A stretch of 64,000 nucleotides of DNA from Escherichia coli (lineage in GTDB: Bacteria > Pseudomonadota > Gammaproteobacteria > Enterobacterales > Enterobacteriaceae), in the NCBI RefSeq assembly GCF_017348835.2, contig NZ_CP071375.1. The stretch is one strand, 5' to 3'. Below are positions 17,528-19,744 of the stretch, piece after piece. Position 1 is the stretch's first letter; each line of letters opens with the position of its first letter. A model generated the notes under the pieces. The model had not been told where the DNA came from. It saw only the letters and a list, made by a program, of their open reading frames with translations, and ran no database searches. A program made the position numbers and the translations under genes.

Positions 17528-17806
17528 GTGAAAAAGACAGGCATCCATTCCTGAAAACGGGTTCCCTTCCCGGTCATTGTCACTTCAGCTTTATACAGGC
17601 ACTCTCTATCAGAATGCTGTTTATTACTGCCCAGAGTTTTGTTGGTATTCATCTACCATTTTTTTGACAAGACAAAACATTACAGAAATTACAATGCTTA
17701 GAAAAAATCCCAGAGCCAGGCAAATGGCAGCAGGGTATTTATTTTTTATTTCTGGTGAGCTTATTGAACCGCCCCGGGTTTCCTGGAGAGTGTTTTATCT
17801 GTGAAC

Positions 17807-18694
17807 TCAGGCTGCCAGATCATTATTTCCGATGGAAGCATAATAAGCTTTTTCTGCTTCTGCCGGAGGAATATGGCCCAGCCTTTCCAGCAATCGTCGA
17901 TTGTTATACCAGTCCACCCACGTTAGTGTGGCCAGTTCCACTTCTGTCCGGTTTTTCCAGCTCTTACGGTGTATTACCTCCGCTTTGTAAAGACCATTGA
18001 TGCTCTCAGCCATCGCGTTGTCATACGAGTCGCCAGTACTCCCTGTTGATGCCAGTAATCCGGCTTCCTTAAGCCGCTGCGTGTAGGCCAGCGATACATA
18101 CTGAGAACCTTTATCACTGTGATGGATTGTGCCGGACGGCCGACGGGCCCACAACGCCTGCTCCAGTGCATCCAGCACGAATGTTGTTTCCATGGATGAT
18201 GAGACCTGCCATCCCACGATGTATCCGGCGAACACATCAATGATGAACGCCACATAAACGAAGCCCTGCCATGTGCTTACCCAGGTAAAATCAGCCACCC
18301 ACAACTGGTCTGGACGTTCTGCCACGAACTGACGGTTTACGCGGTCGCATGCGGCAACGGCTTTCCGGCTGACGGTAGTGCGGACCTTTTTACCCCGGAG
18401 AACACCGGCAAGTCCCATAACTGCCATGAGACGTGCCACAGTGCATCTGGCCACTCTGATACCTTCCCGTAACAACTGACGCCAGACTTTACGCACACCG
18501 TATACCTGGTGATTTTCATCGTATACGCGCTGTATCTCTTTCTTCAGCCAGTCATCGTGCTGCGCACGGGCACTGCGTTTATCCGGATGATGTCGCTGTT
18601 GCTGACAATGGTAATACGTTGACGGGGCAATATGCAGTTCGCTGCATACCGGTCCGACCCCGTACTGCTCACGCAGCTTATCCAGCAGTGGCAT
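17807..18694 (-). CDS. IS3-family transposase OrfB (DDE integrase domain)
   Basis: ORF 17807..18694, 295 aa; expressed in IS3-family elements by -1 frameshift from OrfA. Confidence 0.85.
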   Translation of the reverse strand: MPLLDKLREQYGVGPVCSELHIAPSTYYHCQQQRHHPDKRSARAQHDDWLKKEIQRVYDENHQVYGVRKVWRQLLREGIRVARCTVARLMAVMGLAGVLRGKKVRTTVSRKAVAACDRVNRQFVAERPDQLWVADFTWVSTWQGFVYVAFIIDVFAGYIVGWQVSSSMETTFVLDALEQALWARRPSGTIHHSDKGSQYVSLAYTQRLKEAGLLASTGSTGDSYDNAMAESINGLYKAEVIHRKSWKNRTEVELATLTWVDWYNNRRLLERLGHIPPAEAEKAYYASIGNNDLAA

Positions 18695-19020
18695 TATTTT
18701 TTCCAGAGGCGGTCGAACTCCGCCTTCGCAAAATAAGCGGAAGCCTGGCGAAGGATATCGTTACTGCGGCGCAGTTCACGATTTTCACGTTCCAGCTCTT
18801 TCAGACGCTGACGTTCAGCGGTGGTGAGTCCACCATCACCACTCCCGGTATCCCGCTCATGCTGGCGAACCCAGACACGCAGAGTCTCCGGCGTACAGCC
18901 AATCTTTGGGGCAATGGAACAAATTGCCGCCCACTGTGAGTCATATTCATCCTGACTTTCCAGAACCATACGAATCGCCCGCTGACGGACTTCGGGGGAA
19001 AAACGAGTATTTTTAGTCAT
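18694..19020 (-). CDS. IS3-family transposase OrfA (HTH/leucine-zipper), 108 aa
   Basis: ORF 18694..19020; [23 protein letters not shown]... Confidence 0.85.
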
Positions 19021-19744
19021 CCTGTTTACCTCTTTCTCAGGGAGTTTAGTCTCCAGGATTTCCGGGGCGGTTCATATAGTTACACAGCCATCACCGTTCG
19101 GATACAATGACCAGTTCCTGGTCAGGTATATCATTTTTGTATAAAGCTCACTGTTAATTGCTGAAGGCGTTTGTATCTCATCGAGAACTTGCCTGCCATT
19201 ATGGTATTCTGACGCATACCATTTGATAATAGACGCCTGCACGTGAGATATTTCCGCTTCAGCAGTTGGTAAATCTCTCTTATCTCCTGACCATTCCAGC
19301 TTTATTTCTCTGTTCTTGACATCTGGGCTGGTGTGAAAAAATGTAGTAATTCGCTGAATAACATCTTCAGTCATTGTGGTCTGACAGGCAAAGTTATTAT
19401 TGCTATCACAGTTAACAAGTATGCCTGGCGTTGTCTGGTTTATTTTTAGGCTGTAACTCACTTTTATATTATCTTTATTGATATACAGAAACAACAGCAC
19501 CATTGCCATACAGATAGCTATAATAAAAAGGATAACACGAATCTTTTTCTTCAGATAAAATAAAATCTCAATCAGATCGATATCCTGTTTGATTTGTTCA
19601 TTCATAATATATCCAGAAAATGAAATCTGTCGCAGATAAGGTTGTATTAATAGTCTGTATCAGGAATGTTCGGGTTAAATATCAGAAAAAAAACAGCATC
19701 ATGAATACTGGATGTTTATAGCCTGCAGGCAGTATAATTTAGCG

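Follow-up and report, generated by a model that had tools for sequence, protein, structure and literature searches.

An IS629-type element inserted in ykgH, beside the hyx/UpaB island of Escherichia coli

Introduction

Insertion sequences of the IS3 family move by copy-out-paste-in transposition, during which a circular intermediate carrying a junction promoter is formed. Within the ISfinder scheme, a copy counts as an isoform of a named element, in this case IS629, of the IS51 group, with its isoforms IS1203 and IS3411, when it shares at least about 90% of its nucleotides and at least about 95% of its transposase residues with the reference. Three subtypes of IS629 have been distinguished, namely IS1203-like, Shigella-like, and O26:H11-like, which lie 55–60 nt apart from one another, and the target site duplications (TSDs) left by the element measure 3–4 bp and lack sequence specificity (Rump et al., 2011; PMC3271280). 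The genome of strain F2_18C (CP043542), an ST302, O108:H9 aEPEC isolate described by Wyrsch and colleagues, carries 23 intact IS1203 or IS1203-like copies (PMC6985150), while strain PE164 has been characterized as an O108:H9 aEPEC/ExPEC hybrid (PMC12233904).

The locus considered here lies in a 64-kb stretch of Escherichia coli DNA (hereafter the window, to which all coordinates refer unless stated otherwise), in which a 1310-bp element of the IS3 family interrupts ykgH next to an accessory gene island. K-12 likewise carries an IS3-family element in this neighborhood, about 9 kb away: IS3A (insE1/insF1), which is located between the eaeH and ykgA pseudogenes, as an earlier note on the window had stated. 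IS3A differs, however, in its annotated length (1255 bp), in its insE/insF genes, in its site, and in the event from which it arose, and ykgH of K-12 is intact; the view expressed in the same note that the insertion in ykgH is independent of the K-12 element thus holds.

Relationship to Described IS629 Copies

The best match to the element in a phage collection is the depositor-annotated IS629 OrfA/OrfB of BP-4795, an Stx1 phage from E. coli O84:H4 (AJ556162). The BP-4795 copy is also 1310 bp long, lies 6 nt away (99.5% identity), encodes an OrfAB identical at 401 of 404 residues (99.3%), and shares the terminal inverted repeats (TIRs), frameshift site, and pseudoknot of the window copy, such that among these features the insertion site alone differs. 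In addition, copies 100% identical to the element are found in many E. coli genomes, including O103:H2, O121, and other non-O157 STEC/aEPEC.

Comparison with the remaining groups reveals a greater distance. Specifically, IS1203/IS1203v, the O157:H7-type "IS629" (subtype I), has the same length, the same organization, and a 3–4 bp TSD, but differs from the window copy at 53 nt (96.0% identity), with an OrfAB identical at 391 of 404 residues (96.8%). One such copy, 53 nt different, is annotated as "IS629 transposase OrfB" on pO121_SE14002, and both PGAP and authors handle IS1203-type and window-type copies as variants of one IS; the names that PGAP applies nonetheless differ, with O157 copies termed "IS3-like element IS1203 family transposase" and the window copy "IS3 family transposase" only. 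Similarly, the Shigella-type IS629, for which the copy on S. dysenteriae plasmid p79-8006 served as a proxy, is 1310 bp long and has the same architecture and a 404-aa OrfAB, but it differs from the window copy at 60 nt (95.4%) and in its transposase (384 of 404 residues identical, 95.0%). The pO121_SE14002 and S. dysenteriae plasmid copies are separated from each other by 52 differences. This three-way split, with roughly 50–60 differences between groups, fits the three published subtypes, and the designation "IS629-like" used in the earlier note is therefore correct.

Measured by the isoform rule against these proxies, identity amounts to 99.5% for BP-4795, 96.0% for the pO121 copy, and 95.4% (nucleotides) and 95.0% (amino acids) for the Shigella plasmid copy. 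Judged by these proxies, then, the element is most likely an IS629 isoform, a name that is based on depositor-annotated copies and the published subtype structure. By the same comparisons it is of the subtype common in non-O157 STEC/aEPEC, with the O157 IS1203 type excluded, and it probably belongs to the O26:H11-like subtype III.

Structure of the Element

The complete element occupies 17765..19074 on the minus strand, as delimited by its ends and its 1310-bp length, and its transposase genes are read in the direction of ykgH. Its termini, TGAACCGCCCCGGGTTTCCTGGAGA and TCTCCAGGATTTCCGGGGCGGTTCA, constitute a 25-nt imperfect inverted repeat in which 22 of 25 positions match; the left, orfA-proximal TIR spans 19050..19074 (minus strand, TGAACCGCCCCGGAAATCCTGGAGA), and the right, orfB-distal TIR spans 17765..17789 (plus strand, TGAACCGCCCCGGGTTTCCTGGAGA). 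When up to three mismatches are allowed, the TIR 25-mer occurs at only two places in the window, both of them element ends, compared with an expectation of 0 matches from dinucleotide shuffles. Directly abutting one end is the first copy of the TSD, TAT (17762..17764), while the second copy (19075..19077) corresponds on the coding strand to codon 177 of ykgH, ATA (Ile).

Two open reading frames fill the interior. The first, orfA (18694..19020, minus strand), is open over 108 aa and has a HTH_Tnp_1 DNA-binding domain according to Pfam, and the second, orfB (17807..18694, minus strand), is open over 295 aa from its ATG and comprises HTH_21 and an rve (DDE) core, the latter with a Pfam E-value of 8.8e-25. 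The frame of orfB is −1 relative to that of orfA, and the two overlap at ATAATG. At the overlap is an A6 slippery run (UGG AAA AAA UAA; 18697..18702, minus strand), the predicted site of a programmed −1 frameshift, and consistent with this prediction PGAP attaches the label "programmed frameshift" to an identical copy of the element. The run falls inside a region matching the ALIL frameshift-stimulating pseudoknot (Rfam RF01497) over the full length of the model (18623..18739, minus strand; 120.3 bits versus a gathering score of 50, E = 5e-32). If orfA is translated across the A6 run with a shift of one base backwards, the outcome is an OrfAB fusion of 404 aa, which matches the NCBIfam model NF033516 ("IS3 family transposase") from position 1 to 369 of 369 with 362 bits, the cutoff being 160.

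The element thereby displays every sequence-level hallmark of the IS3 family: a length of 1310 bp, where family members measure about 1.2–1.55 kb, with TGAACC...GGTTCA termini in line with the TG and CA at which the imperfect TIRs of the family begin and end; two overlapping ORFs in phases 0 and −1; a putative −1 frameshift signal made up of the A6 run and the ALIL pseudoknot; a DDE (rve) transposase that fits the family model; and a duplication within the 3–4 bp range, TAT on each side, where the empty sites of K-12, L003, and L004 have a single TAT. The earlier note had described a 1310-bp IS3-family, IS629-like element with TIRs and intact-looking OrfA and OrfB, flanked by a 3-bp TAT duplication. 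All of its coordinates are correct, and the NF033516, Pfam, and ALIL matches, together with the 6-nt distance to the BP-4795 IS629, bear out the assignment.

The Interrupted Gene

Two pieces of ykgH flank the element on the minus strand. The 5' part, codons 1–177, extends over 19075..19605 with its ATG at 19605, and the called ORF continues to 19072 because the terminal TGA of the element (19072-19074) is the stop codon of the truncated, 177-aa product. The 3' remnant, which is cut off from the start, holds codons 178–222 and the stop (17624..17761, stop codon at 17624-17626). Joining 19605..19078 to 17764..17624, that is, taking out the element and one TAT, gives a ykgH of 222 codons, while removal of the element alone, with both TATs kept, gives 223 codons with one extra Ile. 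The restored protein is identical to K-12 YkgH (b0310) at 214 of 222 residues (96%) with no gaps; the claim of the earlier note that a 222-codon frame between 17624 and 19605 is rebuilt in this way thus holds. Orthology is indicated by this full-length similarity and by the kept position beside the convergent ykgG, in the order ykgE-F-G followed by ykgH.

The same site is uninterrupted in K-12 and near-identical relatives (GAGCTTATAGTTACAC), and K-12, OkiPb01695, and ETEC6335 carry GGTGAGCTTATAGTTACACAGCC there, TAT occurring once. Five draft genomes, which match the window at 99.8% identity across 10.7 kb of flanking sequence and in which the site is uninterrupted, moreover encode exactly the restored 222-aa protein.

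What is lost from YkgH are its last 45 residues (178–222), which include a C-terminal hydrophobic/membrane segment. A family search with YkgH returned no NCBIfam match and, in Pfam, only a marginal Wzz N-terminal match (E = 8e-4), and the gene is AT-rich (37% GC). Most likely the insertion creates a null allele, and the truncated 177-aa protein could still be made. Annotation pipelines leave the disrupted gene as two "hypothetical protein" fragments; in public annotation, the 177-aa fragment appears as a hypothetical protein (WP_096220381.1) and the 3' remnant as a partial pseudogene.

Proposed Course of Events

Based on sequence comparison, the arrangement is very probably the outcome of an ordinary transposition, in which a transposition-competent IS629 isoform entered ykgH at codon 177 during the recent ancestry of a pig-associated O108:H9/ST302 aEPEC sub-clone, and it is likely to be a neutral lineage marker that leaves regulation of the adjacent hyx/UpaB island unaffected. 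A −1 frameshift at the A6 run, assisted by the ALIL pseudoknot, would have yielded the OrfAB transposase; movement would have been by the copy-out-paste-in route via a circular intermediate that is known for the IS3 family. A copy would thus have inserted at codon 177 of ykgH, and staggered target-joining would have duplicated 3 bp (TAT). The TGA of the IS terminus would then end YkgH at 177 aa, with the C-terminal membrane segment gone. Given that no other gene separates ykgH from the convergent ykgG and that ykgH has frequently been inactivated in other lineages, the insertion is most likely a neutral lineage marker, and we infer that loss of YkgH is itself most likely neutral. Consistent with this view, ykgH serves as a neutral integration locus in production strains, in which its disruption is tolerated (PMC9923381).

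The Neighboring Island and the Question of Selection

Between betA and ykgH, upstream of ykgH and on the same strand, lies an island composed of ipbA(fimX)-hyxR-hyxA-hyxB, the UpaB cluster. In the window, hyxB, encoding a UpaB-type autotransporter (19731-20227), is reduced to its first ~165 codons. Relative to a full locus, the loss is a clean deletion of 1858 bp with its junction between 19736 and 19737, and it includes 52 bp downstream of the gene. Both hyxA and the tyrosine invertase gene ipbA (fimX) are frameshifted, while the LuxR-type gene hyxR is intact (about 20269-22810, by offset from the L001 and L008 annotation).

The element was considered as a candidate cause of the hyxB truncation. 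This candidate was rejected, firstly, given that the deletion junction is 660 bp from the element and, secondly, given that the same deletion is present in OkiPb01695, in ETEC6335, and in the five near-identical drafts, all of which have an intact ykgH. Occurrence of the deletion in unrelated, IS-less genomes with intact ykgH makes it older than, and independent of, the insertion.

Relative to the island, the element sits downstream on the island's own transcription strand, and beyond it in the direction of ykgG there are only the 45-codon ykgH remnant and a hairpin. The hairpin, a perfect inverted repeat of 20 bp whose loop is 1 nt long (17488-17528), is located between the convergent ykgG and ykgH and is probably a shared bidirectional terminator; a consensus terminator scan did not call it, owing to its loop size. 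Over 17300-20400, a consensus scan for promoters and terminators produced counts no higher than those of shuffles and no useful outward promoter. An effect of the element on the adjacent island, raised as a possibility in the earlier note, finds no support, since the element lies downstream and the hyxB deletion also occurs in IS-free genomes with intact ykgH.

Additional disruptions of ykgH are found in other genomes. IS629-type elements are inserted in the ykgH orientation, at sites other than that in the window, in UID2309220026 (L009 2345-3654, TSD GTA) and in PSS-11 (L010 2041-3350, TSD CAC), and both of these copies, which differ from the window copy at 54 nt, represent another IS subtype.

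Such observations allow the alternative that the insertion was selected, either through an advantage of losing YkgH or through an altered expression or stability of the ipbA-hyxR-hyxA-hyxB island. In its favor are the independent hits of IS629-type elements at three different sites in ykgH, all in one orientation, as well as the ykgH of M15 (L028), which is broken by IS66 and IS5 elements, and that of the O157-lineage strain 149 (L029), which has an internal stop. Several lineages also have IS629-type copies within hyxB or next to it, and one of these copies lacks a TSD and lies between truncated hyxA and hyxB, indicating an IS-associated deletion. On the other hand, 3 hits among 5426 genomes with more than 23,000 chromosomal IS629-type places fit what would be seen in a dispensable, AT-rich gene, and the same orientation in 3 of 3 cases has p = 0.25. 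Furthermore, the element lies on the downstream side of the island and precedes nothing but the 45-codon remnant and the convergent ykgG; close relatives in which the site is empty show the same hyxB truncation and overall island layout; and laboratory strains tolerate a disrupted ykgH (PMC9923381). Selection is thus improbable as an explanation. The data fit a dispensable ykgH/hyx region that tolerates insertions, and, more speculatively, ykgH and the hyx island may be a zone in which IS629-type elements repeatedly land or genes repeatedly decay.

Distribution and Age of the Insertion

Among 5426 complete E. coli genomes, the IS-less arrangement is present in one piece in 4867, while ykgH with the IS is present as one colinear piece in two, PE164 (100% identity) and F2_81/F2_18C (99.9%). 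PE164 originates from a pig in China and F2_81/F2_18C from a pig in Australia, and both are O108:H9 aEPEC. Apart from an extra IS1 in PE164, the window and PE164 differ by 1 mismatch in 22 kb, while over 39.9 kb the window and F2_18C show 9 mismatches together with 4 gaps. The reading of the window as PE164 itself was rejected on these grounds, the sequence coming instead from a third isolate or assembly that is very close to both. Sequences matching the element are located at 32 places on the PE164 chromosome and at 26 on that of F2_18C, and in public assemblies at least 23 contigs encode the exact 177-aa product. Metagenome contigs were also searched for exact occurrences of the left-junction 28-mer, and none was found.

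The extra element in PE164 is an IS1B located where an aldo/keto reductase gene begins (L001 3574-4350; about 9641-9649 in the window), its 777 bp consisting of 768 bp and a 9-bp TSD. Neither the window nor F2_18C has it, and IS content therefore varies among near-identical isolates.

The existence of identical copies elsewhere in the same genome and in other genomes, the intact ORFs, TIRs, and TSD, and the empty site in close relatives together point to a recent insertion of a presumably active element whose presence at the site varies within one clone. The opposing view, in which the element is an old, inactive relic, is very unlikely: neither ORF is interrupted, the frameshift signal is intact, TIRs and a perfect TSD are in place, the copy has zero differences from many others, and the site is empty in genomes whose flanks are 99.8% identical. 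Least probable of all, to the point of being negligible, is an origin by homologous recombination between two copies of the IS, through inversion, deletion, or translocation, with the flanks joined secondarily, a process for which the ~25–30 copies in the lineage and the commonness of IS-mediated rearrangements in such genomes (PMC6985150) could be cited, but which is effectively refuted by the matching TSD and exact reconstitution, in that the flanks are two halves of one gene bearing an identical 3-bp duplication from which the ancestral sequence is exactly rebuilt, and against which stands also the kept synteny rclR-ykgEFG-ykgH-hyx-betA.

Read as a transposition into ykgH, the insertion is a known and ordinary one, a textbook IS3-family event that already exists in annotated public genomes, though unremarked. 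A full-text search of the literature for IS629 together with ykgH found no paper, and the ST302 genome paper lists other genes disrupted by IS1203, ykgH not among them (PMC6985150). Because very close relatives have the empty site, the insertion offers a clean presence/absence marker for the porcine O108:H9/ST302 aEPEC sub-clone, and it adds to the cases in which expanding IS629-type elements erode the accessory genes of LEE-positive E. coli.

A Possible Excision Scar and Minor Observations

One draft genome of the same clone (GCA_020732225.1, contig JAIUUC010000037.1; L016 2990-3120) has no IS in ykgH and a site, ACTATATGATCACC, that corresponds to window positions 17759-17764 and 19072-19077. 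The site has the exact length of an empty one, but reads ACTATA-TGA-TCACC where the ancestral sequence reads ACTATA-AGC-TCACC. Specifically, the 3 nt that follow the target triplet are the terminal TGA of the IS, and the same 177-aa truncation is encoded. Either an excision scar or an artefact of assembly would account for this site. That it is a natural scar of near-precise IS629 excision, with recurrent landing and decay of IS629 in the ykgH/hyx region as a related possibility, is a tentative reading to which we assign less than even odds. If it is true, 1313 bp would have been lost from this genome, comprising IS nt 4-1310, one TSD copy, and 3 flanking nt, with no obvious microhomology, and the type of product would bear on models of transposase- or IEE-dependent IS excision.

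Two further observations concern other parts of the window. At the eaeH locus, fdeC, encoding an inverse autotransporter adhesin (about 4145-8398), is annotated in each of the two near-identical complete genomes as a pseudogene containing an internal stop. Lastly, a short tandem duplication with an offset of ~93 bp and 94% identity, detected as off-diagonal BLAST matches, lies at about 38128-38395 in a small hypothetical gene between yahG and yahI.
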